64,000 bases of DNA from Bacteroidales bacterium (GCA_963664245.1 OY760934.1:232242-296241), one strand, 5' to 3'. Shown: positions 9,135 through 61,949, counted from the first letter of the stretch. Numbers and translations are program-made. Notes: generated by a model not told the origin, from the letters alone.

Positions 9135-9298
9135 GGGGTGCAAAAATATTTTGGTCAGCTTTAGCTGAATGTGATCCAACGTTTTATGGTATGGTGTCGT
9201 GGGGGATTATGGGGCGAAAACGTATCCGTTTACACTGACTTTTTTTTACGAGCCACAAACGCTTAAAAACCGCTGAAACCCGCATGCACTATACCATT
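9135..9298. repeat. Conserved 3' cassette-flank element, copy A (split by the IS; continues at 10999-11010)
   Basis: Shares ordered blocks with 21164-21324. These include GTCAGCTTTAGCTGAATGTGATCCAACG (9154-9181), which is 27/28 identical to 21175-21202. Confidence 0.6.
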
Positions 9299-10998
9299 TG
9301 TGTCTGTTGCACAAAGGCATTAAAATAAATAAATTGCAATTTGGTTAATACTTTTTTTCATCCCTAATAATTCAGGTTTTGATTACTTTATGCATTTAAT
9401 TTCAATAAAAAAGGCTTGAATAGCATTATATGAAGCGAAAAAACCAGCAATTTGCTCATATATATAGGCCATTTGAGCCTTTACCTTGGTCTCGTACTTA
9501 TTGACATTATATTTTAGTAATTTCTTCAAGTTATAAGCACAGGCAGCCATGTGAACCACTTTATTGGCTTGGGCAATACCCAAAGTATTGATTTTTCGTA
9601 ATCCCAGGTATTGAGTAAGGTTTCCCCAAGCTGGTTCTACTGTTGATTGCCGTTTACCCTTCATTTTTCTGCCCCATTTACTATTTACCCTCTCATTATT
9701 CCGTATGTATTCATCCAAATAGGCTGTTATTGCGATCTTTTTTTCATGAGACTTTCCGATACATACACTTCTGCTGGGGCAATCTTTACAATCGCTTCGC
9801 CGGGTATAGTAATGGTTTTGTAAAGAGTCATTGCTATGCTTTTGCTTTTTAAATATTACCCTTTTGCCTTGTGGGCATAACCAATAGTTTTGTTCCTTTA
9901 TAAAAGTAAAACCCTCTGGGCCACCTTTAAACGTTCCATGTTTTGGAATGTAACTAAGTATATGTTCTTGTTCCAGAAACTGATAATTATCTCCGCTACT
10001 ATAACCAGCATCAGCTAGAATATTAGTCCATAACAGCCCTAATCTCCATAAACGCTTATGGGTTCTCTTAACGATATCTTGTAAGTTCTTGCTGTCCACT
10101 CTATCGGCATGATAAGCCTGTACATCACTTATTACATTGAAGGCCGTATCTACGGTAATGTTCCCGTGATAGTTTAGCTTACGGGATTTTCCCGGCTTTA
10201 CACTAATGCGAGCATCAGGATCGGTAGGACTATAATGGGTTTTGTTACTGGTGTATTTAGAACGCTTAGAATTAGCCCCTTGCCGCGTGTTTTGGGTTGT
10301 TTTCCATTTTTTCTGCCGTGCTGCTATTTCATTAAGTTCATCTTTATTTGCAGAAACCTGTCTTTGTGCCAGGTTTGCTTTATTCTTTTTTGCTTTTCGT
10401 ATTGGTTGTTGGTCTCCATTGGAGATAGCCCTTATTCTGGTTAAATATTCTTCCAGCTCTTCTTCTGGTACTTTTAGCTCTAAGCTATCCATACTTGCAT
10501 TGGCTTTAATAGGAGCAGAATCGGTTGCTTGGGTATGCCCACTCACAAGCCCACTATCAACACATAAAGCAAATATCTTTGTAAAAACAGTTTCAAAGAC
10601 ACCCTCTGGAAATAACTGGCGAGTACGGCTAACAGTACTATGCCACGGTAAGGGTTCATCTATATTATATCCAAGAAAATACAAAATATCTAAACGCATG
10701 GAGCAATGTGCTATCAACTTACGATCACTTACAATATTTTCTAAATAGCCAACAATGCATAATTTAAAAAAGACACGCGGGTCTATACTTTTTTGTCCAC
10801 AACCACCATAATATGGCGCAGTTTGTTTGAGGAGAAAATCCAAATTCAGGATCGACTTTAACCTACGGTAAAAGTTCTGCTCTGGCACAACCTGGCTTAG
10901 TTGGAAACTGACAAATAGTTTTTCTTGGTATTCTTTATTCCCTTGCATGACGTAAGTTAATAATATTTTGCCTATTTCTTTGTTGTGCAACAGTTACA
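9299..10998 (-). mobile_element. IS1182-like insertion sequence (~1.7 kb)
   Basis: Terminal inverted repeats TGTGTCTGTTGCACAA (9299-9314) and TTGTGCAACAGTTACA (10983-10998), with an 11-nt perfect core CTGTTGCACAA. Single transposase ORF. TGTGT occurs at 9299-9303 and 10999-11003, which is either a 5-bp target duplication or part of the IR. Confidence 0.75.
9383..10948 (-). CDS. IS1182/IS5-type DDE transposase
   Basis: N-terminal MQGNKEYQEKLFVSFQLSQVVPEQNFYRRLK ... DPRVFFKLCIVGYLENI, typical of IS1182-group transposases. DDE region around ADAGYSSGDNY. The ATG at 10948 is preferred over the TTG at 10990 in the ORF track. Confidence 0.85.
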   Translation of the reverse strand: MQGNKEYQEKLFVSFQLSQVVPEQNFYRRLKSILNLDFLLKQTAPYYGGCGQKSIDPRVFFKLCIVGYLENIVSDRKLIAHCSMRLDILYFLGYNIDEPLPWHSTVSRTRQLFPEGVFETVFTKIFALCVDSGLVSGHTQATDSAPIKANASMDSLELKVPEEELEEYLTRIRAISNGDQQPIRKAKKNKANLAQRQVSANKDELNEIAARQKKWKTTQNTRQGANSKRSKYTSNKTHYSPTDPDARISVKPGKSRKLNYHGNITVDTAFNVISDVQAYHADRVDSKNLQDIVKRTHKRLWRLGLLWTNILADAGYSSGDNYQFLEQEHILSYIPKHGTFKGGPEGFTFIKEQNYWLCPQGKRVIFKKQKHSNDSLQNHYYTRRSDCKDCPSRSVCIGKSHEKKIAITAYLDEYIRNNERVNSKWGRKMKGKRQSTVEPAWGNLTQYLGLRKINTLGIAQANKVVHMAACAYNLKKLLKYNVNKYETKVKAQMAYIYEQIAGFFASYNAIQAFFIEIKCIK

Positions 10999-11001
10999 TG
11001 T

Positions 11002-11016
11002 GTTGGCTGCTGGGTT
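11002..11016. repeat. Cassette-1 inverted repeat, 3' arm
   Basis: GTTGGCTGCTGGGTT ends 1 nt before the stop codon (11017-11019). Its partner is the rc of 12373-12387, GTTGGCTGCAAGTTT (12/15 identical, first 9 perfect). Confidence 0.55.
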
Positions 11017-12345
11017 TTATAGTAATTGTTTTAATTCTTCCCTTATCACCGAAGGTTTTTCTGCTGTCGCATCGATAATAAATCCTTTATCATCAATCAA
11101 AATATATCTCGGAAAAGCTTTTGCATTATAATCATCATTAAATTTATGTGTTGCCCCTTCAGTACAAAGATTAATGGTATTTAATTCAAATTCTTTTATT
11201 TTACTTAACCATTTTTCTTTGTCATTATCAGCTGATATCGATACAAAAATGATATTTTCATTCTTCAATTCATCAGAAAGCTTTTTCATTTCGGGCATCT
11301 CTCTTATGCAAGGTCCACAAAATGAGCTCCAACAATCTATGTATACAAATTTACCCAGAAAGTCCGAAAGCTTAACAATATTTCCGTTGTTATCTATTAT
11401 CTCAAATTCAGGAGCCTTTTTTCCTGTTGCAAGCTTGCTCCAATTATTATATTTCCCTGTCAGGTAATCTTTTTGTCCTTTGTCTTTCATAATTGCCAGA
11501 AAGTCATCGCATATACTATCAATTCCATCAATACCATTAAGATTTATTTGACTATTAATCTCTCTGAGCATTATATCTTCGAATATTTCTCTTTCAGTAA
11601 ATATTTCCTTTGCAAGAGTGTATTTGTCATTTAATTCTTTTGCCCTGAAATCTAAATAAGATATTAAAGTTGACTTGTAATCATTGAATTTGAAGAGTTC
11701 TTTATTGTTAGTTTCTATCTGGTCAGTGAATTTGTAATAATTATCAGGAAGTTCAGGTTTAATTTTAGTGAGCATCTCATAAAAACCTGGATACCCAAAT
11801 TGTTGGTTAATCCAAAAGTAATTGATAAGCAGATTTTCTGTGTTGTAGAAAGAATTAGATATTTTGGGATTCAATTTTTGGTAATCATTCAAATGTTTTA
11901 TTCTAATCTGCTTAACACTATCTATTTTTTCTATAAATTTTTCAGGCTCAGAAGAAAACAGAGCAATATCAATTTTTCTTGGGTCGTCAAATCCTAAATC
12001 CATTATTAAGTTCATTTTCTTATATAAAAACTCACTTTCTTCAAAACCAAGCCCGGAAAATTGAATTTGTTTAGACCTTTCATAATCTATAAAAATGCTA
12101 TCACCAAATTCTACAAAAAGAGGAATCCACTCATCTAATTTCAAGTCAATGTAATTTTCTGCTCTAATATTAAAACTAAATCTACCATTAACAATAGTAT
12201 CCATGTAAGTTGAATCAGCTGTTTTTACTTCTGCAATTGCTACTTCAGAATTCCTCAAAAAACCAACAATCTTGATTGTGCGATTGTCTTTATTACTGCA
12301 TCCCAAAATCAAGATACATAAGCTTAAAATCAATAATTTTCTCAT
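11017..12345 (-). CDS. Thioredoxin-fold (TlpA/ResA-like) lipoprotein
   Basis: Lipoprotein signal MRKLLILSLCILILGCS. C-terminal thioredoxin fold with CxxC motif WSSFCGPC. AT-rich. Confidence 0.75.
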   Translation of the reverse strand: MRKLLILSLCILILGCSNKDNRTIKIVGFLRNSEVAIAEVKTADSTYMDTIVNGRFSFNIRAENYIDLKLDEWIPLFVEFGDSIFIDYERSKQIQFSGLGFEESEFLYKKMNLIMDLGFDDPRKIDIALFSSEPEKFIEKIDSVKQIRIKHLNDYQKLNPKISNSFYNTENLLINYFWINQQFGYPGFYEMLTKIKPELPDNYYKFTDQIETNNKELFKFNDYKSTLISYLDFRAKELNDKYTLAKEIFTEREIFEDIMLREINSQINLNGIDGIDSICDDFLAIMKDKGQKDYLTGKYNNWSKLATGKKAPEFEIIDNNGNIVKLSDFLGKFVYIDCWSSFCGPCIREMPEMKKLSDELKNENIIFVSISADNDKEKWLSKIKEFELNTINLCTEGATHKFNDDYNAKAFPRYILIDDKGFIIDATAEKPSVIREELKQLL

Positions 12346-12372
12346 AATTATATTTTTTGTAGGATGTTTCTT

Positions 12373-12387
12373 AAACTTGCAGCCAAC
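12373..12387. repeat. Cassette-1 inverted repeat, 5' arm
   Basis: aaacttgcagccaac is the rc of GTTGGCTGCAAGTTT. Lies 28 nt upstream of the ATG at 12345. Confidence 0.55.
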
Positions 12388-12520
12388 TTATATATAAACC
12401 AGTGTGTGTTATTTTACTTATATATTTCAATAATTCTCCTGGTGAATTAATCAAAAATTATCAACCCAAATGCTGGGGAGAAGCATTTTCCACAAAATCA
12501 AATATAAGAAATTTTATTAA
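12383..12520 (-). promoter_or_regulatory. Promoter + 5' leader module L1
   Basis: On the minus strand there is a -7 box TATATTTG (12499-12506). Next comes the hairpin AAATGCT-TCTCCCC-AGCATTT (12468-12488). The proximal 49 nt (12383-12431) are about 41/49 identical to 22171-22220. Confidence 0.55.
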
Positions 12521-12529
12521 ACCAAGTCC

Positions 12530-13114
12530 TTAGTAATGTGCCGAATAATGCTTGGGGTCAACGATTTCGCGGTATTTATCGATAATTTTTTTAAAATCTT
12601 CCCATACCGGGCGTTTCAGGTTTTGGTTTCGCAACAGGGCCGATGGGTGGTAAGTGGGCATTGCCAGGCGGTTTTGCCAGTTTATCCAGTTTCCCCGGAG
12701 CTGGGTGATTTTTGCATTTGGATCAACCAGCCCCTTAAGTGCGGTTGCTCCCAGTAAAATAATAATTTTAGGGTTGATGATTTCAATTTGTTGGTATAAG
12801 TAAGGAACACAGGCTTCCCGCTCTTGCGGCAGGGGATCGCGATTGTTGGGTGGCCTGCACTTTACAATGTTGGCAATAAAAAGGTGCTTGTCGCGCTGAA
12901 ACCCGCAGGCTCCCAAAATTTTGTCCAGCAGTTGCCCCGATTTCCCGACAAAAGTTTTGCCCTGCATGTCTTCGTGGTATCCCGGGCCTTCGCTAATTAG
13001 CATGATTTCTGCCTCCGGGTTTCCATCGCCAAAAACAATATTGTTTCGTTGTCGGTGCAGCTCGCATTTTTCGCAACCGGAGACCTGTTCGCGTAATATT
13101 TCCAGTTTATCCAT
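12530..13114 (-). CDS. Uracil-DNA glycosylase, family 4
   Basis: GDGNPEAEIMLISEGPGYHED, Cys ligands CEKCELH and KCRPP, C-terminal HPSALLR. Confidence 0.85.
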   Translation of the reverse strand: MDKLEILREQVSGCEKCELHRQRNNIVFGDGNPEAEIMLISEGPGYHEDMQGKTFVGKSGQLLDKILGACGFQRDKHLFIANIVKCRPPNNRDPLPQEREACVPYLYQQIEIINPKIIILLGATALKGLVDPNAKITQLRGNWINWQNRLAMPTYHPSALLRNQNLKRPVWEDFKKIIDKYREIVDPKHYSAHY

Positions 13115-13964
13115 GCGTTTGAGTGTTTATTTCTTTAAGTATGATAGACCCGTTTTTAACGCCGATGTGGCGGGCAATGACGGCACATTTTGCCTTCAGT
13201 AAAAAGAACACCTGCCGGTTGCAGCCCGACAACCCTTCAAAGTTTCCCTGCCCTTTACTGATGACCATGTCGGCACGGTTAAAGCGGTATAAAAAATCAG
13301 GGTTGGCGTGGTTCAGGATTATCCCGGGCGACTGGTTTCCCGATTCAATAATTTCAGCAACCTCGTCAATGCCCGAAGCAATGGCCTCGGCCGTGGTTAC
13401 ATCATTGATAATGGGTTTGGAGCGCACCACGTATTGAACCGGTTTGTGGAGCTCTTTAATTAATATTTTATCGAAAACCGACTCGCCGCAATTGTCTCCA
13501 AGGTAAAGAACTTGTTTTGCTTTTTTTAAGCTGTTTTTAAACGCATCATAATCAAAAATGGCAAACTCCTGTTGCAGTATTTTTTTTACATCGCTTACGA
13601 TGTCAAACTCATGGTTTACGCCCAGGTCGATGATGTTTCCTGCAATGGCAATTTTGATGGCCGTAAGCAGCCGGTCGTCCGATTGCTTAACCATGTCTTC
13701 TAGTTCCGGGTAAATTGATTTTGCCTCTTCAATATGTTGTTCTTTGATTTTTTTGTAAGGATCAGCTACCCCGGTAACTTCGCTGACAATTTTATACACC
13801 ATGGTTCCGGTTTCGGCAGGCGTGCTTTGCAACGATATGGTTTTTATCATTTCCCCGGTTCTGTCCAGAATTTCTTTCATCTTTTCTTCATCGTTTGTTG
13901 CTATTCGTCCTGCACGAAGTGCCTGGTGAACAAAGCAGGGGATACAGTCAAGGTAAGTATTCAT
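13107..13964 (-). CDS. DUF89/ARMT1-like damage-control phosphatase family protein
   Basis: N-terminus MNTYLDCIPCFVHQALRAGR and overall length are typical of DUF89 proteins. Overlaps the UDG start by 8 nt. Confidence 0.7.
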   Translation of the reverse strand: MNTYLDCIPCFVHQALRAGRIATNDEEKMKEILDRTGEMIKTISLQSTPAETGTMVYKIVSEVTGVADPYKKIKEQHIEEAKSIYPELEDMVKQSDDRLLTAIKIAIAGNIIDLGVNHEFDIVSDVKKILQQEFAIFDYDAFKNSLKKAKQVLYLGDNCGESVFDKILIKELHKPVQYVVRSKPIINDVTTAEAIASGIDEVAEIIESGNQSPGIILNHANPDFLYRFNRADMVISKGQGNFEGLSGCNRQVFFLLKAKCAVIARHIGVKNGSIILKEINTQTHG

Positions 13965-14090
13965 TTTTATTTATGCGTTTTGTTGGAAGAATATTAAATT
14001 CTCCTGAAATATTTTCAAAGATACTGAATCCGCTCCTTTTTTCAGGAGTTTCGTTTAACTTCTTTGCTTGGGAATTGTGTGAAGCTTGGT

Positions 14091-14801
14091 TTAAATCGGT
14101 TTGAAATCTTTCTTTGTTACGCCACAAATCGGGCACATCCAATCGTCGGGGATGTCTTCAAATTCGGTTCCGGGAGAAATGCCCGAGTCGGGATCCCCAA
14201 CATCTGGATCGTAAATCCACCCGCAAACAATACATTGATAAAGTTGTTTTTCGCCGGAGGACTTTTTTTTATCTTCAAATTTTTTTTCTTCCCGGTCGCC
14301 AAGGTAGGTTGGGGCGTTTTTAGGAGATACCCCCTTAATGACTTTTCGGTAGTGATCGTAGGTCAGTGGGGGGGCATCATCATCCAACAAATCATAATCA
14401 ATCAATTCGCCGATGAATAATAGGTGTGTGCCTACGTCTATGGTGTCGGTTACTTTACATTCGAACCAGGCAATGCATTTGTCGGTAATAATGGGCGAAC
14501 CAGTTTCCCCTGTTTTGTAGTTGATATTTTCAAATTTATTGATCTCTTTACCGCTCTTAAATCCCCAGGGGCCTAAGAATTCAAGGTCAACATCTTGTTG
14601 TAGCACTGAAATACTAAAGGCTTTGCTTTTCTCGATGACCCCAGTGGTTTGGTTGTTTTTGTTGGTGGCAATGGCAAATTTGGGCGGGGTGGCCGTAACC
14701 TGGAACACCGTGTTTGAAACGTGCCCGGTTTTTTCTTCGCCATGGGCTGATGATACAATGTAAAGTCCGTAAGTAAGTTTGAAAAAAGCGTCGATGTTCA
14801 T
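14091..14801 (-). CDS. Flavin reductase-like domain fused to a C-terminal rubredoxin
   Basis: The C-terminus [12 protein letters not shown] ... DDWMCPICG carries two CxxC pairs of the rubredoxin type. The N-terminal ~160 aa are flavin reductase-like. Confidence 0.8.
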
Positions 14802-18174: not shown

Positions 18175-18588
18175 TTACTTCGTCAAATCTTTAAGTTTGT
18201 TATTTTCAATGATTAAATATCTTTCCTCCATTTCAAAGTGAGGATCGGCATTGATAATAATTAAACGGCTATCTTTTTTGTATTCACAACCATTTGAAGT
18301 GTTGAACGAACCGATGAATTTCCCGTCAATTTGATTGAATACTGCATACATCTGGCAAGGTGAACCGCATCCCCATTCAATGATAAAGTAATGATTGGCA
18401 AAGTGCGATTTTTGAAGTTTCCATTGAAGCCTTGCGCATGATAAAACATAGTTCGTTTGAGGTAACCTATCTAATATCAAACTATCAACCTGAATAAACT
18501 TTTTCTTATTGATAATTGGATATTCATCAAAACTAACTGTAGATGATAAAATAATGGATAATATAATTAAAGGGAAAAATATCTTCAT
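18175..18588 (-). CDS. Hypothetical secreted protein
   Basis: N-terminal hydrophobic signal MKIFFPLIILSIILSS. AT-rich, no motif recognised. Confidence 0.45.
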   Translation of the reverse strand: MKIFFPLIILSIILSSTVSFDEYPIINKKKFIQVDSLILDRLPQTNYVLSCARLQWKLQKSHFANHYFIIEWGCGSPCQMYAVFNQIDGKFIGSFNTSNGCEYKKDSRLIIINADPHFEMEERYLIIENNKLKDLTK

Positions 18589-18638
18589 TTTAATTAATTT
18601 GGAATTAAATGTTCAAAAATAGCAATATAATTGTTAGG

Positions 18639-19211
18639 TTACCCCTGAACCTCTCCATTAACCGAATGGATAATTACTTTCCCGAAACCTTGTCCGTAAT
18701 CATTTTTGAAATCGTAAAAGGCCCCAATGACCAGTAGCTCATTTTTTTTGATTTTTTCGCTGTACTTTTCCAGGGCAATTTTTACCTGGTAGTTGATGTT
18801 GTTGTTGATGCAGGTGTTAAGTTCATCGGTAGGGGTGAGGGCCGGAAGAAGTTGGTCGAGCCGGGCTTTGATAGAATCCGGTTCTTTGTTGTAGCCAGCC
18901 CTGAAAGTTTTTATTGCCCCGCAATCGCTATGCCCAAGGATGAGCAGTATCGGGGTTTTGAGGTACAGCACGCCGTAATCGACCGAGGCTTCGTTAGAGA
19001 ATATTTGGTTCCCAATATTGCGAACCGTAAATATTTTGTTAAACGAATTGCCCAGTAAAGCTTCACTTTGAACGCGCGAATCGGAACAGGAAACCAAGGT
19101 GATGAGCGGTTTTTGGCCATGCTGCATCTCTGCCTGGAAATCTTTGCCGGTACGGTTCATAAAGGCATGGTTATTATCTTGAATAAGTTCAAGGATATTT
19201 TGGTGTCTCAT
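18639..19211 (-). CDS. Beta-class carbonic anhydrase
   Basis: Zinc-ligand motifs CSDSRV and GHSDCGA. Confidence 0.8.
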   Translation of the reverse strand: MRHQNILELIQDNNHAFMNRTGKDFQAEMQHGQKPLITLVSCSDSRVQSEALLGNSFNKIFTVRNIGNQIFSNEASVDYGVLYLKTPILLILGHSDCGAIKTFRAGYNKEPDSIKARLDQLLPALTPTDELNTCINNNINYQVKIALEKYSEKIKKNELLVIGAFYDFKNDYGQGFGKVIIHSVNGEVQG

Positions 19212-19358
19212 GGTTAGTAAGAATTAATACGCTCAAATATAAGGAATTCTGGGAGAATGAAATGCGTAATTATTCTAAAAAATTGGTGTAAAAAATTCCT
19301 CTAACATTTGATGTTCTTTTCAGTAGAAGCTTTGCAGGATTTCTTAGTTGCGTCTATA

Positions 19359-21029
19359 CTACGAACGTTTAATCGTTGTGTTTGGTTCTGTGTGTTCTAT
19401 TATTTCGCATGCTTTTTTTGTTGCAATCTTAAAGTTATCGAAGATTAAATCAACGGGAATTAATTTGTTTAAATGATATTTTATTAATTCTTCTTTAATC
19501 TCAGAGTTCACGCCTGATAATAAAATCGTTATGTTTTTATTTCGTAATATTTTTACGGCATCCTTTAAATTATGCAATCCGGTTTGATCAATAAATGAAA
19601 CATGCCGCATCCGTATAATCAAGACTTTGCATGTTAATCCGATTTCCTCAATTGCTTCGGAATACCTTCTGGCGGAAGCGAAGAATAAGGGGCCGCTAAT
19701 CTCATAAATTTTGACCATATCTGGTAGGTCGGAATAATTTTCTATCAGGTCGTTATCTACAATACAATCAATTCTTTTCTCGCTAATATCAGACATTCTT
19801 TTCATGAAGAGTACTGCTGATAAGAGTACGCCGATTTCGATGGCTAAGGTTAAATCAAAGAACACTGTTATAAAAAATGTTGTGAGCAAAATAAGTACGT
19901 CAAAGTACGAACCTTTCAGAATAGACACGAAAGACCGCCACCCACTCATATTATAAGCGACAATGATTAAAATTCCGGCCAGGCAAGACATGGGGATCAG
20001 TTTTGCCCAGCGTCCGAGAAACAGCATTATCAGGAGCAATGTGATTGCGTGTACCATGCCCGATATTGGAGTCCTTCCCCCGTTTTTAACATTTGTTGCT
20101 GTACGTGCAATTGCGCCTGTAGCAGGAATTCCTCCAAAAAAAGGAGTGATAATATTTGCAATTCCCTGTGCAATCAGCTCTGTATTTGAACGATGTTTCC
20201 CGCTAATCATCCCGTCGGCTACAACTGCAGAAAGTAAAGATTCAATTCCTCCCAGCAAAGCAATGGTAATTGCCGGTGCAAAATAGTTTTGTAATTCATT
20301 AAGTTTTACGCTAGGGAAAACAAAACTAAAATTATTGGGGATCGAACCAAAGAATGTTTCGACCGTCGCAACATCAAGTTTGAAAATATAAACCACCAGT
20401 GTTATCGCCACAATAGCTAAAAAAGAGCCCGGGATTTTAGACGTGATCTTTTTTGAAAAAACGGTGATTAAAATGGTAACCATGGTTATGGCAAAAGCGA
20501 TCCAGTTTATGTGATTGATATTTGAAAAATAAATCATCCATTTCTCATAAAATCCGGAAGGGATTTTGCTTATGGGTAAGCCCAAAGCATCTTTTATTTG
20601 TGTTGAAAAAATTACGAGGGCAATACCACTTGTGAAACCAACGACCAATGAATGGGGAAAAAACTTTAATAATGTTCCCAGTTTGAATAATCCAAAAACA
20701 ATTAGTATAAGGCCGGCAAGTATGGTTGAAATTATTAGTCCGTCAATGCCATAGTGTTCAACAATACCATATACAATTACAATAAAGGCACCTGTTGGCC
20801 CTCCAATTTGTACACGGCTCCCTCCCAAAAACGAAATCAAAAAGCCTGCAACTATTGCGGTTATCAATCCTTTTTCGGGCGATACCCCTGATGCAACTGC
20901 AAACGCAATTGCCAATGGCAAAGCTACAATTCCGACAACAATACCTGATAAAACGTCATTTGTTACCTGCTTTTTATCCAAGCCTGTTTTGAGAAGGCTG
21001 AAAAATTTTGGCCTGAAAATACTATTCAT
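19359..21029 (-). CDS. SulP-family anion transporter with C-terminal STAS domain
   Basis: 556 aa with a typical SulP N-terminus (LSGIVVGIVALPLAIAFA) and a C-terminal STAS-like domain. Confidence 0.9.
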   Translation of the reverse strand: MNSIFRPKFFSLLKTGLDKKQVTNDVLSGIVVGIVALPLAIAFAVASGVSPEKGLITAIVAGFLISFLGGSRVQIGGPTGAFIVIVYGIVEHYGIDGLIISTILAGLILIVFGLFKLGTLLKFFPHSLVVGFTSGIALVIFSTQIKDALGLPISKIPSGFYEKWMIYFSNINHINWIAFAITMVTILITVFSKKITSKIPGSFLAIVAITLVVYIFKLDVATVETFFGSIPNNFSFVFPSVKLNELQNYFAPAITIALLGGIESLLSAVVADGMISGKHRSNTELIAQGIANIITPFFGGIPATGAIARTATNVKNGGRTPISGMVHAITLLLIMLFLGRWAKLIPMSCLAGILIIVAYNMSGWRSFVSILKGSYFDVLILLTTFFITVFFDLTLAIEIGVLLSAVLFMKRMSDISEKRIDCIVDNDLIENYSDLPDMVKIYEISGPLFFASARRYSEAIEEIGLTCKVLIIRMRHVSFIDQTGLHNLKDAVKILRNKNITILLSGVNSEIKEELIKYHLNKLIPVDLIFDNFKIATKKACEIIEHTEPNTTIKRS

Positions 21030-21163: not shown

Positions 21164-21324
21164 GGGGGCAAAAAGTCAGCTTTAGCTGAATGTGATTCAA
21201 CGGATGGCGGTATGAAATCGTTGGGGATTGCGTGCGATTTACTATCAAGGTACATGGAAAGTTGAAGCGGGCTAAAAACCTTCGCATACCATGAAACCCT
21301 TATTGGCTATATTGTGTGTTGGCA
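21164..21324. repeat. Conserved 3' cassette-flank element, copy B (intact)
   Basis: Blocks GGGGGCAAAAA, GTCAGCTTTAGCTGAATGTGATTCAACG (21175-21202), GGTATG, TCGTTGGGGATT, GCTAAAAACC, CGCATACCAT and TGTGTTGGC occur in the same order as in copy A. Confidence 0.6.
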
Positions 21325-21332
21325 TTAGTACT
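21301..21332. repeat. Cassette-2 inverted repeat, 3' arm
   Basis: TATTGGCT-N9-GTTGGCATTAGTACT, ending 3 nt before the stop codon (21336-21338). Confidence 0.6.
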
Positions 21333-21335
21333 TTT

Positions 21336-22160
21336 TTAATCAAATCTATATAAAAACGTCCGATAAACTTCCCCTTTATGGTTTAAAGTCACTTCTTTAA
21401 TCAATCTACCCAGTGAGTCATAATCGTACATTATTGTATTGTTTTTAACACTAAAAGATAAGTTTTCAGTCAAAGGGTATTCGTTACTTTCAATTGATTC
21501 TTTGATTAATCGTCCATTCTCGTTATAAACAAATTTTTTCTCCTCTTTTAGTTTACCACGAATCCGAGTAATGTTTTTTAATTTTCCTGTATCATCATAG
21601 GAGTATTTTCCAATCCAGGTAGTGTCGCCGTTTTCAATATCAAATTCTTTGTTAATCAGTTCGTCATTATATAAATAAGCTCTCCAAATCTCATACTTGT
21701 CACCTTGCATATTTGAACCTCTATCAATTAATTCTTTGAATATCTTACCGCTCTCATTATAGAATTTAATCTGTTCAAATTTAACTGTATCCAAATCGAC
21801 TGCTGTTACTAAAGTCCTGTATATTCCAATCAGGTTTTTATTGTCATTATAAATCATTAAATCTCTCCACCCAATCTCACAATTATACATACGACAGTTA
21901 TACTTTTCAATTAAATTACCTACCGAATCATAGAAATATTTTATCCTGTATTCATGACCAATCTGTTCGATAAGTTGTCCCGATATATTAAAGAATTTAT
22001 AATTAATAGCATTTTCAGGAGTCATGTTGCTACCAGAATACTTTATTTCTCTTATATCGTAATCTATTTGTTCACTAAAATCTGGAACATACAGAACTTG
22101 TCTCGAACAACTAAATTGTATCAGAATCAAGATTGCTAATATTCTTTGCAGTGTGCTCAT
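21336..22160 (-). CDS. Lipoprotein with short YD/RHS-like repeats
   Basis: Signal MSTLQRILAILILIQFSCS from the ATG at 22160; the track start at 22190 is a TTG. Repeats YDSVGNLIEKY, YDDTGKLKNI, YNENGRLIKES, YDSLGRLIKEV. AT-rich. Confidence 0.55.
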   Translation of the reverse strand: MSTLQRILAILILIQFSCSRQVLYVPDFSEQIDYDIREIKYSGSNMTPENAINYKFFNISGQLIEQIGHEYRIKYFYDSVGNLIEKYNCRMYNCEIGWRDLMIYNDNKNLIGIYRTLVTAVDLDTVKFEQIKFYNESGKIFKELIDRGSNMQGDKYEIWRAYLYNDELINKEFDIENGDTTWIGKYSYDDTGKLKNITRIRGKLKEEKKFVYNENGRLIKESIESNEYPLTENLSFSVKNNTIMYDYDSLGRLIKEVTLNHKGEVYRTFLYRFD

Positions 22161-22192
22161 AGTATTAATACCAACGTATGTACAAACCAATA
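22161..22192. repeat. Cassette-2 inverted repeat, 5' arm
   Basis: The rc reads TATTGGTT-N9-GTTGGTATTAATACT and directly abuts the ATG. The inner 15-mer is 13/15 identical and the outer 8-mer 7/8 identical to the 3' arm. Confidence 0.6.
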
Positions 22193-22310
22193 TGTGTTAT
22201 TTTTCTTATGTCTTTTCAATATCATTATTTATTCCGCAGCTTTGTACGAGAACAAGTCTTAATGCCGGGGGAGAAGCATTATTTCAAATATAAAAAATAA
22301 ACCATTATGA
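22171..22310 (-). promoter_or_regulatory. Promoter + 5' leader module L2
   Basis: On the minus strand there is a -7 box TATATTTG (22285-22292). The hairpin is AATGC-TTCTCCCCCG-GCATT (22261-22280). The proximal 50 nt are homologous to L1. Confidence 0.55.
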
Positions 22311-22332
22311 ATTTAATATCCATAGTTGGTTT
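22299..22332 (-). terminator. Candidate intrinsic terminator of the upstream three-gene operon
   Basis: The minus strand reads AAACCAACTATG-gatattaaatt-CATAATGGTTT followed by ATTTTTT. The stem is 6+4 bp with a small internal loop. The first arm overlaps the stop codon. Confidence 0.45.
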
Positions 22333-23173
22333 ATTTTTCCTCCATATTTATTAATTTAAAAACTAATGTTTCGTTTTCATAATTACGGTATTCCATTTTA
22401 ACAAAACCGTATTCTTTATTGAAAAACATCGTTAGCTTTGAGTTTCCTAAAGAACATGTAGAAACACTTTTAATAATCCAACAGTCAATTTTTAAATTTC
22501 CTAGCAGGTAAGTTGTCTGACCGGATACTTTGTATTTGTATTTTATCGTTTCTCCATCCCATTCTCCCCAGCCGTCATTAATATTTAACGAACCGTCCCA
22601 TTTTTTACCTTTTTTTATGGGGAAAGAAACTTTCGGGAAAGGAGCGACCTCTGTAAATTTGTATTGGTTGTTCCGGATGGGGTGCATCCATACCTGTTCC
22701 ACATTCTCAATAACACCTTCCCCTGTTTTTTCTTCCCATAATTGAAGTTCTTTATTTATTTTGTGATTTCTTAATTTTATAGAATCGGCTTTATAATCTG
22801 GGAATTCATAATAGATTAAATCTTGTTTCTCCGGTTGCCATTCCCACCTTTTTCCGGTTGTTTTCATATATACAAAGCCATTGGACAGCGTATCTTTATT
22901 TGAAGCCAAATAAATTGCTTTGTAGCGATAAGTTTTCCCCTTTTTAAAGATTGTTCTTACTTTAGGAATTCTTCGTTCCGTAAATTCTAAACTGTCAAAA
23001 TTAGTGTTAGAATCAATGCCATTCTCCGGAATTTTGTACCTTCTTTCAATGTCATACAAGGTATCCGTTTTGGTATTTATAGTTTCAATGGTGGTGGAGT
23101 TTTGAGTGTAGGCATTACTTTGAATACCAATTAGTGCAATTATGGTGATAATAAAAATCTGTTTGTATTTCAT
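22331..23173 (-). CDS. Hypothetical secreted protein
   Basis: Signal peptide MKYKQIFIITIIALIGIQSNAYTQ from the ATG at 23173. An alternative ATG at 23206 directly abuts the upstream stop. No motif recognised. Confidence 0.5.
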   Translation of the reverse strand: MKYKQIFIITIIALIGIQSNAYTQNSTTIETINTKTDTLYDIERRYKIPENGIDSNTNFDSLEFTERRIPKVRTIFKKGKTYRYKAIYLASNKDTLSNGFVYMKTTGKRWEWQPEKQDLIYYEFPDYKADSIKLRNHKINKELQLWEEKTGEGVIENVEQVWMHPIRNNQYKFTEVAPFPKVSFPIKKGKKWDGSLNINDGWGEWDGETIKYKYKVSGQTTYLLGNLKIDCWIIKSVSTCSLGNSKLTMFFNKEYGFVKMEYRNYENETLVFKLINMEEK

Positions 23174-23206
23174 GTCTTTTAGTTTATATGTAGACCAATG
23201 TGGCAT

Positions 23207-25228
23207 TTATAATACTTTTATAAGTAAACGAAAATTCTTGACTTCCTGCACCAAGTTGTTCAGTTCTTTTAATTGTACATATTCCTCTTTATCAATGAAG
23301 TCTTTTGTAATTATATAACTTGATTGTATTACAAGTTCATCGTTTGATGAACCTAAGCTTATCTGAAAAAAATATTCTCCTACATCGTTTTTAATACTCC
23401 TGTTAAAATCTTCAAGATTTAACACCTTAATATCACGTGGGAATTTCAGGTTAAATGTACTTACATCGCTATAGCTATAATCCAAATAATAATTCAAGTC
23501 AATAGAATCTTTTTCGCTTTCAATTTTGCTGTTTCGTATTAATTTATCCAGGGTAATACTAATCATATTATCACTTATAAATGTGACTGAATTTTTGATT
23601 GTGCCTTTTGCATTGAAATTGTATAAAAAAGGAGCTGTGTTTTTAAAAGTAATATTCGTAATGGTGTCAATTTCTAAAGCAGTTTTATCATCTTCAAATT
23701 TGGCAAATGCACTATAATAATCATTCATTTCCTGGTTTTTATCAAGCATACTAAAGAACCTTCTTAAATCCGTTGATAATCCGCCGGAAATCCTTAAGCT
23801 TGAATTAAAAGTGGTGTTTTTGTTTTCAATATCTACATCACAATAGATATACTGATTCAGATAATTTAAATTGGCATTCATCCCCGGCAAGGTGATTAAA
23901 TTAATTTGAACAGAATCTGCTTCTGCCACTTCTAAGTCATAATTAATGTACTTGTCTTTTGCCTTAATTTTACCCTCTAAAAACGGTTGTGCGATAACGG
24001 CTTTTGTATTATAAAGTGATGTTGGGATTTCATTAATCTGATATTTGTAATTTACATCGTGTGGGTACAAAAAGCTAAGAAATCCCTTGCCATTTTCATA
24101 TGCAAAAAATATGTGATCAAATTCCCCTTTTCTGATATAGCCCGGGTCAATCTCTCCCGATCGTTTACTACGGGCAAATACGGCCCAATATTTAATGTTT
24201 AAGTCCTCTAACAATTGACGGTATAAGCGTCGGATACTTATAGGATCAAAACGCTGTTCTTTTAAAAAGTATCCAGTGGATTTTATAAATTCTTCTTCTT
24301 TCGGTTCTTCTATTGCGAAATTTTTAAGAATGTCGTTATGTAGAAGCTCGAATTTGTAATATTTGCTACTGTCTTTTTCGTCATCAATAATTCTTTTTTT
24401 CCAGCGACGGTAGTACGATTTTTTTTCATAGTCTAGTGATAAAGGTTGGGTCATGTAATTAAATTCCTGGTTGTAAACATCTTTCCAGTTTCTAATATCA
24501 TCGTCCTTATTGTTAACCGAATAAAAGATATAGGGTAATTCGCAGGGCAAACAGGTGTAGTTGTTTCCTTCCAAAGCTTTAACCTCTTTCATTTTAAATA
24601 CACAATAAATTAGGGTGTCATTTACCAATACCTGAGGTTTAGGAAATCCATTGTACTCTTTATACATAATGACCAGATTGGGAGGAGTTTGAATGGTGTA
24701 TTCGGTATTTAAACTGGGAATGGCATTGAATAGGTTTACAAAATCCCCTAGTTCATAAAGTTTTAACTTATGGGTATACGTATACTTAATTTCAATCGTA
24801 TCTCCTGCTTCAACCCCGGGAATCGGAAAATTTATCAGATCTGTTTGTTCTTCTTTTTTTTGGCGATTTAAAATAAGGCTTGAATCTAATTTTACGATGC
24901 TTCCGTCTGACTTTAATGTTTTAATAGTTATAGTACTTAAATCATCTATGGTTGATTTACTTAGACTTAGAAATGCAAACTTGTCAACCCCGGATTTATT
25001 ATTAATTACAATTTTATTTTGGAAAGAAACATGTCTTCTGTAATTCCTCCATGATTTACTGTAAGCAACATCTGTATATGAATATAACATGTAAGCATCA
25101 GCGTTTTTACACACTTCGCTAAATGGTTGTTTAGGAATACTGTCATTGGCAAAAACACCGATGCAAATAAAGCTTAGACAAAAGAGAAGGTGCTGTTTAA
25201 ATTTTGTTTTCGAGAATAATGGGCTCAT
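23207..25228 (-). CDS. Large secreted protein of unknown function (possibly a DUF3857/DUF3858-type partner of the adjacent transglutaminase-like protein)
   Basis: Signal peptide ...HLLFCLSFICIGVFA; 673 aa; AT-rich. The family guess comes only from the typical Bacteroidota gene pairing. Confidence 0.45.
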   Translation of the reverse strand: MSPLFSKTKFKQHLLFCLSFICIGVFANDSIPKQPFSEVCKNADAYMLYSYTDVAYSKSWRNYRRHVSFQNKIVINNKSGVDKFAFLSLSKSTIDDLSTITIKTLKSDGSIVKLDSSLILNRQKKEEQTDLINFPIPGVEAGDTIEIKYTYTHKLKLYELGDFVNLFNAIPSLNTEYTIQTPPNLVIMYKEYNGFPKPQVLVNDTLIYCVFKMKEVKALEGNNYTCLPCELPYIFYSVNNKDDDIRNWKDVYNQEFNYMTQPLSLDYEKKSYYRRWKKRIIDDEKDSSKYYKFELLHNDILKNFAIEEPKEEEFIKSTGYFLKEQRFDPISIRRLYRQLLEDLNIKYWAVFARSKRSGEIDPGYIRKGEFDHIFFAYENGKGFLSFLYPHDVNYKYQINEIPTSLYNTKAVIAQPFLEGKIKAKDKYINYDLEVAEADSVQINLITLPGMNANLNYLNQYIYCDVDIENKNTTFNSSLRISGGLSTDLRRFFSMLDKNQEMNDYYSAFAKFEDDKTALEIDTITNITFKNTAPFLYNFNAKGTIKNSVTFISDNMISITLDKLIRNSKIESEKDSIDLNYYLDYSYSDVSTFNLKFPRDIKVLNLEDFNRSIKNDVGEYFFQISLGSSNDELVIQSSYIITKDFIDKEEYVQLKELNNLVQEVKNFRLLIKVL

Positions 25229-27023
25229 TGATTATTTTTTTGTACGATTTCAGTATTTCGTTTATTGTATTAAGGTTTTCTTTTTTAATGAAGATGTAAT
25301 CAAGAATAAACTCGTAGTTACATTCTATTATAGAATCAGCCGGGTTGCTTATCTTCAGGTCAAGGGAAACACCTTTATCTGAGAATGAATGTTCAATCTG
25401 CTTAAATGCGTTAAAAGGTTCCTGCATTTTAATTGTCAGCTTAACTTTTTTATCGATTGTGCTACCCAGGTGTGTTCCTTCAAGCAGGGTTTCCCTGTTT
25501 TCTGTATCTATTAAACGGGGTAAAAAGTCGATGAATAAATATCGGCTATCATTATCTTTAAATATTTTCAGATCGACAGATAGCTTGCCTTCAATATTAA
25601 CCGTGTCAGAATGGCTGTTAACCGTGAGCGCTGTTACCGATTGGTTGTTAAATATCAATTCATAATACTTTTTTCCGATACATTCTCTTTCATCTTCTTT
25701 GCTGCCATAAAACATCCATTTTAAAAAGTTTCCGGAAATGCCAGTGTAAATAGCTTTAAATTTCCCTTGTAACGATTTGCCAGAATCTGTATTTAACTCA
25801 ACTTCGTAGTTGATTATATTGTCTTGAGGTGCAAATCTGTTTAATTTATAATATTCCCCGCCATCGGGATTGAGAATTAGGATTGTTTTTTCCTGAATGC
25901 TTTGAACAGGGGTTCCCGGTATATGAATCGGATCCGTTGGATCCAGCACAATAGGTTTGTTATTTAAATATGCCACGCATACAATATGATTAGCCGAACA
26001 TAAGGCCGGGAAATCGCAATCGCAAATATGGTGAAACGTAGCTGCTAGTGCAATATGGCTTTTAATTCCTTTGTAATTTAAGGCTTCGCAAAGGAAATTT
26101 GATAAGTCTTTACAATCACCATGTTTGTTTTTAAAAACTTCATTTACATGCGATGGAATAAATGCGCCTATGCCTATCTCAATGGCGACATATTTAAAAT
26201 TTGTTCTTACATAATTATAAAGGGTGTTTGCGATTTCGGTTGAGTCGGTTATGCCATTTGTTATTTCGTTAATTTTATTTATAGCTAATGAATCTAGGCC
26301 TCTTACAGTCTCTACTTTACGGAGAAACCAGTTGTTTAAATATTCGGTTTTATTTTCACCCGAAGCCGTTGGAATAACCGTTGTTCTTATTAGTGGAGCC
26401 CTTATGTCTCTATAAATGCCAAAGTACATCATAAAGTCAGGTTCTACTTTAACCGGAACTGCTTTAAAACGAAACTGCATTTGATTGTTAAATTTAGAAG
26501 AATCAATAAGCAGATATTTCAAAGAATCTATATATAATGTATTGTAAAAAAAATGGTGTGTTTCAGGTATTGTAATCTGGTAATCTAGGGTGTCAGCATT
26601 ATCATAGTTGAATAGGGGTAAATCACAGAAATATCTTAATTCTTTACATGAAACTCTATAGGTGATTTTTGCTTCAGTTTCAGCAGGAATGATAATGGAC
26701 TTTACTCTTTTACTGGAAATTAATTCAGAGTTGAAATCTTCATTGTGAATAATTGGGTCTTCCAGGATTTTAAACCGCTTTCCTTTTTTAATATATACCT
26801 TAATGCCAGATATTCTTTCTAACTCATAATCATAGAAAATAGGAAAAATACTTTCTTCAGAACTTTGTTTGATGAGTACACTAATATTTCTATTGAATAC
26901 AGTGTCGTTTACTATTTCAATATGTTCAGTTTTTGTACTGATGTTTAAATCCCGGGCTAATCCCGGAATGTGAATTGAAAATAATAAAACTGCCAAGATT
27001 GAATTAATCGTAGAACCTTTCAA
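25197..27023 (-). CDS. Secreted transglutaminase-like (cysteine-protease fold) domain protein
   Basis: The core KHGDCKDLSNFLCEAL carries a catalytic-type Cys. N-terminal signal. The track start is a TTG, so the exact start is uncertain. Confidence 0.6.
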   Translation of the reverse strand: MKGSTINSILAVLLFSIHIPGLARDLNISTKTEHIEIVNDTVFNRNISVLIKQSSEESIFPIFYDYELERISGIKVYIKKGKRFKILEDPIIHNEDFNSELISSKRVKSIIIPAETEAKITYRVSCKELRYFCDLPLFNYDNADTLDYQITIPETHHFFYNTLYIDSLKYLLIDSSKFNNQMQFRFKAVPVKVEPDFMMYFGIYRDIRAPLIRTTVIPTASGENKTEYLNNWFLRKVETVRGLDSLAINKINEITNGITDSTEIANTLYNYVRTNFKYVAIEIGIGAFIPSHVNEVFKNKHGDCKDLSNFLCEALNYKGIKSHIALAATFHHICDCDFPALCSANHIVCVAYLNNKPIVLDPTDPIHIPGTPVQSIQEKTILILNPDGGEYYKLNRFAPQDNIINYEVELNTDSGKSLQGKFKAIYTGISGNFLKWMFYGSKEDERECIGKKYYELIFNNQSVTALTVNSHSDTVNIEGKLSVDLKIFKDNDSRYLFIDFLPRLIDTENRETLLEGTHLGSTIDKKVKLTIKMQEPFNAFKQIEHSFSDKGVSLDLKISNPADSIIECNYEFILDYIFIKKENLNTINEILKSYKKIINEPIILENKI

Positions 27024-27068
27024 ACCTATTAAAAATTAAAACCATTGTTCATAATATAATTATCCCTA

Positions 27069-27110
27069 ATGCCGGGGAGAAGCATCAAGTCAAATATATA
27101 AAATAAATCA
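27069..27110 (-). promoter_or_regulatory. Promoter + leader hairpin module L3
   Basis: On the minus strand there is a -7 box TATATTTG (27091-27098) followed by ATGC-TTCTCCCCG-GCAT (27069-27085). This is the same core as in L1 and L2. Confidence 0.5.
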
Positions 27111-27157
27111 ATGTATAATAGGTTTTAAAAGAGGAATTAGATTCTTTCTGTAAACAA

Positions 27158-27187
27158 AAAAGCTGTCTTCTTTCGAAAACAGCTTTT
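27158..27187 (-). terminator. Intrinsic terminator behind the displaced rho fragment
   Basis: AAAAGCTGT ... ACAGCTTTT forms a 9-bp stem. On the minus strand it is followed by a T-run. Confidence 0.6.
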
Positions 27188-27210
27188 ATATCTAAAGAAT
27201 AATTTTGTGT

Positions 27211-27595
27211 CTATCCATTCATCGAAATCAAAAATTCCTCGTTAGTTTGAGTGAACATGATCTTGTCTTTCAGGAACTCCATGGCTTCCAGCGGGTTCAT
27301 GTCGGCCAGATGGTTTCGTAGTACCCAAATGCGTTGCAGCGATTCTTTATCAAGCAGCAAATCTTCGCGGCGTGTACTTGATGCCACCAAATCGATAGCC
27401 GGGTAAACGCGTTTGTTCGATAATTTGCGATCCAACTGAAGCTCCATGTTGCCGGTACCTTTAAATTCTTCGAAGATTACTTCATCCATTTTAGAGCCGG
27501 TGTCGATCAGGACCGTAGCGATGATGGTTAATGAACCACCGTTTTCAATTTTACGGGCTGCACCAAAGAAACGTTTTGGTTTTTGAAGGGCGTTG
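27211..27595 (-). pseudogene. rho: Truncated duplicate of the rho 3' end (last ~128 codons)
   Basis: Co-linear with 29230-29614 at a constant offset of 2,019 nt. The 92-aa ORF differs from Rho at one residue. It has no 5' part. Confidence 0.85.
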
Positions 27596-29174: not shown

Positions 29175-29208
29175 AAAAAGGCTGGAACCTACGGGTAACA
29201 GCCTTTTT
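29175..29208. terminator. Bidirectional terminator between the PDZ gene and rho
   Basis: AAAAAGGCTG ... CAGCCTTTTT forms a 10-bp stem flanked by an A-run and a T-run. Confidence 0.6.
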
Positions 29209-29229
29209 TAATATATTAATTTTTAATGG

Positions 29230-53539: not shown

Positions 53540-53551
53540 AATAAAGTATTT

Positions 53552-54978: not shown

Positions 54979-54982
54979 AATC

Positions 54983-57398: not shown

Positions 57399-57409
57399 TT
57401 TAATAAGAA

Positions 57410-58561: not shown

Positions 58562-58568
58562 AGTCGTA

Positions 58569-59753: not shown

Positions 59754-59755
59754 GA

Positions 59756-60952: not shown

Positions 60953-60999
60953 AAAGCAACCTGATTTAAATATTAAATTTACAATATTTCATATGATTT

Positions 61000-61941: not shown

Positions 61942-61949
61942 AATACATT

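Follow-up and report, generated by a model that had tools for sequence, protein, structure and literature searches.

The window analysed here, a 64,000-nucleotide (nt) stretch of DNA from a Bacteroidales bacterium (GCA_963664245.1; G+C content, hereafter GC, of 36.9%), carries in three of its intergenic regions copies of a composite repeat in which a promoter-type box is followed by an invariant core able to fold into a small hairpin. The copies are read on the minus strand. Site 1 lies past a uracil-DNA glycosylase gene, site 2 past the gene of a 291-amino-acid (aa) protein, and site 3 before a transglutaminase-like gene. A fourth copy, site 4, is found in the sister strain L129, before a CoiA-like gene. 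Relatives were collected by homolog searches and comprise four sister assemblies with ~96-98% DNA identity (L124, L127-L133), the sister loci belonging to ERZ21862665 (ctg8804c), ERZ21869602 (ctg94850l), ERZ21831251 and ERZ21862645; more distant orthologs (L118, L120-L123, L125) were also compared. All the evidence comes from one species-level lineage and four element sites.

Promoter box and core at three sites of the window

Exactly three copies of the 12-mer ATGCTTCTCCCC are found in the window, each in an intergenic region, on the minus strand, closed by GCATT and starting 5-12 nt past a box TATATTTG. When one mismatch is allowed, four matches are found against 0.20 expected, and none of 100 shuffles reaches four. 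The fourth match (51722, one mismatch) has no box and lies within a 550-aa open reading frame (ORF) for a secreted beta-helix protein of the type IX secretion system; it was rejected as a chance match. Taken alone, the box motif TAnnTTTG is uninformative because it has 89 matches in the window against ~73 expected, as estimated from base composition; the signal lies in the conserved combination and its order. That order, an A/T-rich stretch, the box and then the hairpin on the minus strand, is the one announced by the original prediction, and it is present at all three places, with a box that is each time the perfect TAnnTTTG match claimed (Table 1).

The same combination stands out when copies are compared. 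In the four sites anchored on the core, 17-18 nt (ATGCTTCTCCCC plus GCATT) are 100% identical, whereas identity is only 27-43% in the ungapped flanks, taken over 45 nt on the upstream side and 30 nt on the downstream side. At site 1, where four strains can be aligned, the spacer between box and hairpin varies in 1 of 10 columns and hairpin 1 in 4 of 21, none of these four changes falling in the ATGC or GCAT arms of the stem; the box does not vary (Table 1). Over the same strains, variable columns amount to 7.2% in the glycosylase gene, 37.5% from its stop codon to the box and 64-68% past hairpin 1. This peak of conservation points to selection on a promoter together with the start of a leader. 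Since a neutral mobile relic would decay evenly or keep its ends, the retention of an interior box and core argues for a function at the level of the host.

In a flavobacterium transcriptome, the sigma-A box TAnnTTTG occupies positions -12 to -5 (PMC9723704). By this rule, from which a transcription start 5 nt past the box may be inferred, the predicted starts are those of Table 1; the core would have its first base at +2 (sites 2 and 3) or +9 (site 1). The distance from box to core is 5, 12 or 15 nt over the sites. Hairpin 1 is predicted to start at +1/+2 at sites 2 and 3, at +6/+7 at site 1 and at about +10 at site 4. Because the box is taken at -12 to -5, the hairpin would stand at the 5′ end of the RNA, as had been anticipated. 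All four sites point into a gene located 62-192 nt downstream.

Two details of the hairpin have to be amended. Its stems, announced as 7, 5 and 4 base pairs long, have 7, 7 and 9 pairs when A-U and G-U pairs are counted. The loop, said to be invariant, is so inside the window but not across strains: site 1 of the sisters reads TTCTTCCCG and TTCTCCCTG, the loop variants being TTCTTCCC in L128 and TTCTCCCT in L129, both through C-to-T changes. In the window, site 1 has A in place of G at the loop closing position. A role of hairpin 1 as terminator of the upstream gene was considered and rejected: it has no U-run, and the promoter box separates it from the stop codon. The idea that the C-rich loop pairs with a GGGGAGAA string found in the 291-aa gene was also discarded, an 8-mer match being expected by chance.

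Additional copies were also looked for. An nhmmer profile search over 176 kb of the species' DNA matched only the known sites. A scan of a genome collection with ATGCTTCTCCCCN{0,3}GCAT gave at least 117 matches, from all phyla; among the matches listed none has a -7 box, and they were attributed to chance. The single match of a metagenome scan with TATTTG followed by the core is within a 781-aa ORF and was likewise put down to chance. Four matches were obtained in viral contigs, none of the four with a -7 box; the two inspected (L135 and L137, the same sequence) lie within a 408-aa ORF, and a block-2-like string near a viral-contig match was judged a coincidence. Rfam has nothing in the window at gathering score and nothing in the fullest copy of the element (L127) at E up to 10. 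In the literature on Bacteroidota miniature inverted-repeat transposable elements (MITEs) with promoters, only Porphyromonas elements turned up, and these are unrelated.

Table 1. Parts of the repeat at each site and features next to them. Energies are in kcal/mol and are given with their z scores.
Feature	Coordinates	Strand	Remarks
Site 1, -7 box TATATTTG	12499-12506	-	Bacteroidota sigma-A type; predicted +1 at 12494/12493; 0/8 columns vary, 4 strains
Site 1, upstream A/T-rich stretch GGTTTAATAAAAT	before 12506	-	
Site 1, hairpin 1, AAATGCT-TCTCCCC-AGCATTT	12468-12488	-	10 nt past box; -5.2, z -0.07
Site 1, linker GGGTTGATAATTTTTGATTAAT, partly deleted second hairpin, TTATTGAAATATATAAGTAAAATAAC	12411-12467	-	From alignment; L127 and L128 carry intact CCTCGCACGAAGTTGCGGGA here
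Site 1, 3′ block (block 2) AACACACACTGGTTTATATATAAGTTGG	12383-12410	-	All homology breakpoints at its end
TlpA-family lipoprotein unit	11003-12386	-	Gene 11017-12345, 442 aa, GC 29%; bounded by TTGGCTGC...GCAGCCAA
Insertion sequence, DDE_Tnp_1_6/DUF772 transposase (9383-10990)	9297-10998	-	Ends GTAACTGTTGCACAA / TTGTGCAACAG; belongs to the strain-specific insert of site 1
3′ palindromic repeat ending AACGTTGGATCACATTCAGCTAAAGCTGAC, terminator-like hairpin	9154-9296	-	z -2.0; paralog at 21175-21229 and upstream of it
Site 2, left inverted end ACCAACTATGGAT	22318-22330	-	Directly past stop codon of 291-aa gene; partner GTACATACGTTGGT at 22183-22170
Site 2, -7 box TATATTTG	22285-22292	-	Predicted +1 at 22280
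Site 2, upstream stretch GGTTTATTTTTT	before 22292	-	
Site 2, hairpin 1, AATGC-TTCTCCCCCG-GCATT	22261-22280	-	4 nt past box; -5.8, z -2.3
Site 2, second hairpin TTCTCGTACAAAGCTGCGGAA	22232-22252	-	-7.1, z -2.5
Site 2, block 2 AACACATATTGGTTTGTACATACGTTGG	22171-22198	-	Sole element part at site 2 in three sister strains
Strain-specific site 2 segment: 274-aa YD/RHS-repeat lipoprotein (21336-22160, GC 30%) and 3′ repeat	21230-22170	-	
Site 3, whole element, 118-nt imperfect palindrome with hairpin 1 at tip	27015-27132	-	-30.7, z -4.5
Site 3, -7 box TATATTTG	27091-27098	-	Predicted +1 at 27086
Site 3, upstream stretch GATTTATTTTAT	before 27098	-	
Site 3, hairpin 1, GATGCT-TCTCCCC-GGCATT	27068-27086	-	ATGC-TTCTCCCCG-GCAT(T), 27085-27068; 5 nt past box; -9.4, z -2.2
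Genes served by site 3: transglutaminase-like (608 aa), DUF3857/DUF3858 (673 aa), 291-aa protein	22331-27023	-	GC 32-33%

A composite repeat next to exchanged genes

Repeat finding and alignment show that the three window copies are parts of a composite repeat of ~110-175 nt, longer than the module announced by the original prediction. It is made up, in this order, of TTGGTTTAATAAAATTTC, TTATATTTG, a short spacer, hairpin 1, GGATTGATAATTTTTGATTAAT, a second hairpin of the CCTCGCACGAAGTTGCGGGA type, TGATTATTGAAATATATAAGTAAAATAAC and a 3′ block AACACAYATTGGTTTATAYATACGTTGG that ends in GTTGG; the second hairpin is optional. Copies differ through the loss of whole blocks. In the window, the second hairpin is partly deleted at site 1 and missing at site 3, and the first linker is missing at site 2. 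A second hairpin and, 70 nt downstream, a second block (12383-12427 and 22171-22215, 82% identity) are common to sites 1 and 2; the idea that a conserved small peptide runs across this block was dropped because the copies are in different frames. The second hairpin of site 2 is homologous to CCTCGCACGAAGTTGCGGGA of L127 and L128 and to CCACGCACGAGGTTGCG of site 4 in L129.

The repeat also has inverted ends. At site 2, the full 168-nt element closes with CCAAC/GTTGG (ACCAAC.../...GTTGGT). At site 3, the inverted ends measure ~17-20 nt (27129-27110 / 27037-27018) with 17 of 20 positions complementary, and the right end lies immediately next to the TTG codon (27023) at which the transglutaminase-like gene starts. 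The small size and terminal inverted repeats of MITEs are therefore seen at sites 2 and 3, site 1 having no left end. GAAAAATAA is present at both site 2 junctions in the window, but the 3′ section of the element itself contains it, and the neighbouring gene is exchanged as well. The repeat is real, apparently under selection and MITE-like in form; it is a new family within an already known kind of element. As a separate observation, the nine codons that end the 291-aa gene (…INMEEK*/…INIEEK*; window 22331-22360, L124 14664-14693) are DNA-homologous to the element's TTGAAATATATAAGTAAAATAA section, so that the end of this gene seems to lie within one copy of the repeat.

At site 1, the box and the hairpin are present in all four strains compared, with a different downstream gene in each: a 442-aa TlpA-family lipoprotein gene and an insertion sequence (IS) in the window, a 329-aa ORFan in L127, a 210-aa ORFan in L128, and a small ORF with IS91-type, integrase and IS1595 genes in L129. 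The whole gap between the glycosylase gene and a 1073-aa FtsX/MacB-type gene (window 12382-9027, L127 10744-11812, L128 6516-7396) holds a different low-GC gene per strain, the four strains being 96-98% identical elsewhere. Homology between the window and L127 stops at 12383, the last base of the 3′ block. The TlpA unit (12386-11003) is found in three genomes with three different flanks, homology beginning exactly at TTGGCTGC; TlpA orthologs of other genomes, 87% and 93% identical, are without the element, and their homology begins at the 3′ end of the module (12386/12387). Upstream of the TlpA unit, L120 (1-43) and L118 (4690-4765) have unrelated sequences that also end in ...TTGG. The L118 sequence CATATTGCGTAAACGTTGG resembles the 3′ block, and the same junction may serve in other species. 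The IS of the window sits ~5 nt past the terminal GCAGCCAA of the TlpA unit, is not at this place in L127, L128 or L129, and has ends unrelated to those of the element. In L129, the gap and its surroundings (10948-14363 and 18497-20585) contain an IS91-type Y2 transposase with a tyrosine recombinase, an IS1595 transposase, a mutator-type transposase and a group II intron reverse transcriptase.

Site 2 differs between strains by presence and absence. In three sister strains, the stop codon of the 291-aa gene is directly followed by the 3′ block alone, behind which come two other small ORFan genes. The promoter-hairpin part belongs to the window strain only; its ~125 extra nt comprise the left end, the box and both hairpins, and a YD-repeat lipoprotein gene takes the place of the ORFans. 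A second swap site thus lies between the 291-aa and sulfate permease genes (window 22330-21230, L124 14694-15705), the ORFans of the three sisters being of 88/128 aa and 165 aa. In the window, the inserts of sites 1 and 2 are both followed by a second palindromic repeat, GCCAACACA...CGTTGGATCACATTCAGCTAAAGCTGAC. Within it, 9154-9208 and 21175-21229 form a 55-nt repeat of 82% identity with the hairpin TCAGCT-TTA-AGCTGA, at the end of a ~140-nt palindromic repeat.

At site 3, 200 nt are identical in the five strains, and the element is not present before the 70%-identical transglutaminase ortholog of another organism. Next to it, a 92-aa ORF just upstream of site 3 is a duplicated C-terminal fragment of rho. 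The 3′ end and terminator of rho (29230-30801) are duplicated over 300 nt (27156-27455 and 29175-29474, 87% by the repeat finder), with a 447-aa PDZ/DUF4136 gene of opposite orientation between the two copies, an arrangement found in all five strains.

The genes downstream have features in common. A signal peptide or a lipobox is found in 7 of 8 products: those of sites 1 and 2 have lipoprotein-type signal peptides, save the 45-aa ORF of L129, and the site 3 product has a signal peptide. GC is 26-30% in the swapped genes and 32-33% in the site-3 operon, against 37% for the window and 42-47% in adjacent core genes. The swapped genes belong to no Pfam family and have no protein similarity to each other; such similarity was accordingly rejected as a tie between them. 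Farther away, the window contains ten co-oriented glycosyltransferase, methyltransferase and acetyltransferase genes (52343-62882), probably a surface polysaccharide locus, with tandem paralogs ~70% identical at 55182-55414/56392-56624 and 59188-59357/60381-60550.

A proposed promoter with a leader element, and the competing readings

These observations may be brought together by considering the copies as one composite intergenic repeat that acts as a portable promoter plus leader for low-GC accessory genes, mostly lipoproteins, a reading held here with moderate confidence. The element would carry a promoter of the Bacteroidota primary-sigma type, made of the -7 box TATATTTG and the A/T-rich stretch upstream of it. 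The 18-nt core ATGCTTCTCCCC(N)GCATT would be at, or a few bases past, the predicted start and could fold into a short hairpin with a C-rich loop. Sitting before low-GC accessory genes, the element would ensure their transcription, with the core first in the RNA. It may then be imagined that the core acts as a 5′-terminal RNA stem-loop, recognised in a sequence-specific manner by a partner, protein or RNA, and/or shielding the 5′ end. The origin would most likely be a MITE-like palindromic repeat, of which the promoter-leader part is now kept by selection. The portable promoter/leader module of the original prediction is supported by the occurrence of one discrete element before unrelated genes at four sites. 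Its view of the downstream genes, AT-rich and coding for secreted proteins or lipoproteins, holds for the AT composition of all the cassette genes and for the 7 products named above, and fails for the cytoplasmic CoiA-like product of site 4. The prediction makes no mention of the ATG that opens the core, of the strain-variable gene sites or of the MITE-like inverted ends.

Several points weigh against this reading, some concerning the promoter and its cargo and others the RNA hairpin. A -33 element was sought as TTTG about 19-21 nt upstream of the -7 box. What is seen is TTG/TGG at 19 nt at site 1 and at 13 nt at sites 2 and 3, and because of these unequal distances there is no constant -33 element. 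In other Bacteroidota, this element has been reported to be dispensable or undetectable (PMC7366714). Site 4 has an imperfect box, TAAATTTA, and its CoiA-like product is without signal peptide. No target-site duplication is visible at site 3 and no cognate transposase was found. Hairpin 1 itself is weak, from -5.2 to -9.4 kcal/mol with z between -0.07 and -2.3, and it does not appear when the whole 165-nt leader is folded to its minimum energy. Its four core pairs never vary, and one outer pair changes from A-U to U-A at two sites. In a covariation test, 87.5% of the cells are paired and 127 of 500 shuffles score as well; as the stem never varies, covariation gives the hairpin no support, and with invariant core pairs and a score not above shuffles the RNA structure is a putative one. 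Moreover, invariance of the sequence itself is not required of a stabiliser that acts by structure alone. Judged from the sequence, the description to which we would commit is that of a promoter plus a sequence-specific 5′ leader element, with an RNA stem-loop as the leading sub-mechanism and a mini-ORF or an operator as live rivals.

The mini-ORF deserves attention since the core begins with ATG and reads MLLPGI..., before 2-12 unconserved codons. At site 1 of the window, the core ATGCTTCTCCCCAGCATT opens an 11-codon ORF, MLLPSIWVDNF*. Rather than a hairpin, or besides it, the core would be a tiny leader ORF, leaderless or nearly so at sites 2 and 3, the translation of which controls or protects the message. 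All seven distinct copies open with ATG CTT CTC CCC, the other peptides being MLLPGIWIDNF* (L127, L128), MLLPGIENIDY* (L129), MLLPGIME* (site 4) and an 18-aa peptide (site 3). Both strain-level loop changes are third-position synonymous (CTC>CTT, CCC>CCT), at sites 2 and 3 the ATG follows the predicted +1 by 1 nt, and sites 1, 2 and 4 have A at -3. However, an extra C in the site 2 loop shifts the frame past codon 4 (MLLPRH*), length and C-terminal sequence vary, and one change, that of site 1 in the window, is not synonymous (Gly to Ser). All four changes are located in the loop or at the position closing it, an arrangement equally compatible with a hairpin, and the ATG would be sequestered in the stem. 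We regard the leader ORF as unlikely. The dyad AATGC-N9/10-GCATT might alternatively be a DNA operator on which a dimeric repressor or activator, bound over +1 to +20, would co-regulate all the carriers. Invariant half-sites without covariation, overlap with the predicted start and 100% identity between sites, typical of DNA recognised by proteins, would all be expected of an operator. A spacing of 9 between half-sites at three sites and 10 at site 2, a strongly asymmetric centre that is itself conserved and a distance to the -7 box that changes from site to site would not, and neither in the window nor in the colinear sister loci are the sites linked to a DNA-binding regulator. An operator therefore appears rather improbable.

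It may also be asked whether the element is primarily a substrate of recombination or transposition, either a MITE centre with its ends or an attachment site of integron or rAID type, with an incidental promoter. The inverted ends and the long palindrome of sites 2 and 3 would suit this idea, as would the clustering of homology breakpoints at ...GTTGG, the swapping of single low-GC ORFan genes at two sites between strains 96-98% identical, and the second palindromic repeat, GCCAAC...CGTTGGAT, at the 3′ ends of the inserts. In Bacteroidales, arrays of integron type that contain repetitive intergenic sequences have been described (rAID-1, bioRxiv 10.1101/471110). Yet the interior core is conserved best and not the ends, the opposite of neutral MITE decay. 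No recombinase or integrase, of the tyrosine family in particular, is adjacent to sites 1-3 in the window or in colinear sister loci, the integrase of L129 belonging to the IS91-type insert. In addition, each site has one gene unit and no array, homology of the TlpA unit ends at its own GCAGCCAA instead of past the 3′ repeat as in an integron cassette, and no clear target-site duplication is seen; a recombination substrate with an incidental promoter is thus quite unlikely. Least probable of all, and by our estimate hardly credible, is a multicopy family of small RNA (sRNA) genes, in which each copy would have a conserved 5′ end with a C-rich seed and be terminated at the second hairpin with some read-through. 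The canonical promoter, the perfectly conserved 5′ end and the divergent remainder do recall the 14-member FopS family of Bacteroides (PMC11697453), and a moderately U-rich stretch follows the second hairpin at site 1 of L127 and L128 and at site 2. But this hairpin is missing at site 3 and at site 1 of L129 and partly deleted at site 1 of the window; the terminator scan lists nothing at the module sites, Rfam gives no match even at E up to 10, and every copy is tightly placed before a co-oriented gene.

A wider scheme may be envisaged. The element, the GTTGG-ended 3′ block and the second palindromic repeat could together form a recombinase-remote platform for gene capture and expression, with a fixed promoter-leader at hot spots (past the glycosylase and 291-aa genes) where single low-GC lipoprotein genes are exchanged between strains. 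Its logic would be that of integrons or rAID without an adjacent integrase, the 18-nt core being the shared control point. This scheme is speculative and rather doubtful. The favoured reading would itself have consequences, if true: one small promoter-leader unit would be re-used to switch on newly acquired AT-rich surface-protein genes, and the same 18-nt core, heading every such message, would offer one handle on a changing set of genes. The element would be a compact example of how accessory genes gain expression signals in Bacteroidota, whose promoters are unusual and where Shine-Dalgarno-independent translation leaves leaders poorly understood. Gene swaps at two fixed sites are a natural experiment on the exchange of small variable lipoprotein genes, and the element could serve as a portable expression part for relatives.

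Likeness to known systems

Promoter-bearing miniature repeats are represented by the Correia elements of Neisseria, and 'mobile promoters' form a general class. The present element resembles them by its size of ~100-170 nt, inverted ends, long palindromic fold, intergenic position upstream of genes, outward promoter and presence or absence according to the strain. It differs from them in that no target-site duplication or parent transposase was identified, by the small number of copies seen (four sites in ~80 kb of unique sequence), by a core better kept than the ends and by whole-block indels. Stem-loops at the 5′ end of messages, of the type of the Escherichia coli ompA leader, have a stabilising role. 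A hairpin predicted 0-6 nt from the 5′ end of the mRNA is reminiscent of these, whereas the stem is here short and weak and the sequence, not just the structure, is conserved. The ops/JUMPstart and LoaP-type leader elements recruit NusG paralogs; in common with them, the core is short, does not vary in sequence and sits in the leaders of AT-rich genes acquired horizontally, with a small hairpin possible in non-template DNA or RNA. In contrast, no NusG paralog was found nearby, there is no sequence similarity, and single short genes leave antitermination little to do.

The invertons of Bacteroidales come to mind because the promoter lies between inverted repeats at sites 2 and 3, imperfect ones with only 72 nt between the arms at site 3. 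However, a single orientation is found in five assemblies at site 3 and in four at site 1, and the window contains no recombinase or invertase for such a role. Repetitive extragenic palindromic (REP) sequences and bacterial interspersed mosaic elements (BIMEs), which are 20-40 nt GC-rich palindromes with long stems, in very many copies and usually past genes, are unlike the present hairpin, which has four invariant pairs plus A-U pairs, a loop of 7-10 nt and a place always past a -7 box and before a gene. In the rAID-1 arrays of Bacteroidales, a XerD-like recombinase is associated with integron-like repetitive intergenic sequences (bioRxiv 10.1101/471110). Low-GC strain-variable small genes, repetitive intergenic sequences past a fixed expression signal and GTTGG-type breakpoints are shared with these arrays and with integrons; the lack of an adjacent XerD-like or IntI recombinase, the single units and boundaries that are not attC-like set the element apart. 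With the FopS and GibS sRNAs of Bacteroides (PMC11697453), it has in common several paralogous copies, a sigma-A promoter, an identical 5′ end and a divergent rest. It departs from them by the absence of a sequence or Rfam match and of a consistent terminator, by a hairpin with a C-rich loop in place of a single-stranded seed, and by its constant position before a gene.

Finally, the promoter part may be compared with the sigma-A/sigma-ABfr promoters of Bacteroidota. It deviates from sigma-A promoters by the lack of a -33 TTTG at constant distance and by the TAAATTTA box of site 4, and the start is here a predicted one. On the other hand, the perfect TATATTTG at three sites, the A/T-rich sequence upstream and a box that is the least variable part of the spacer are those of this promoter class.

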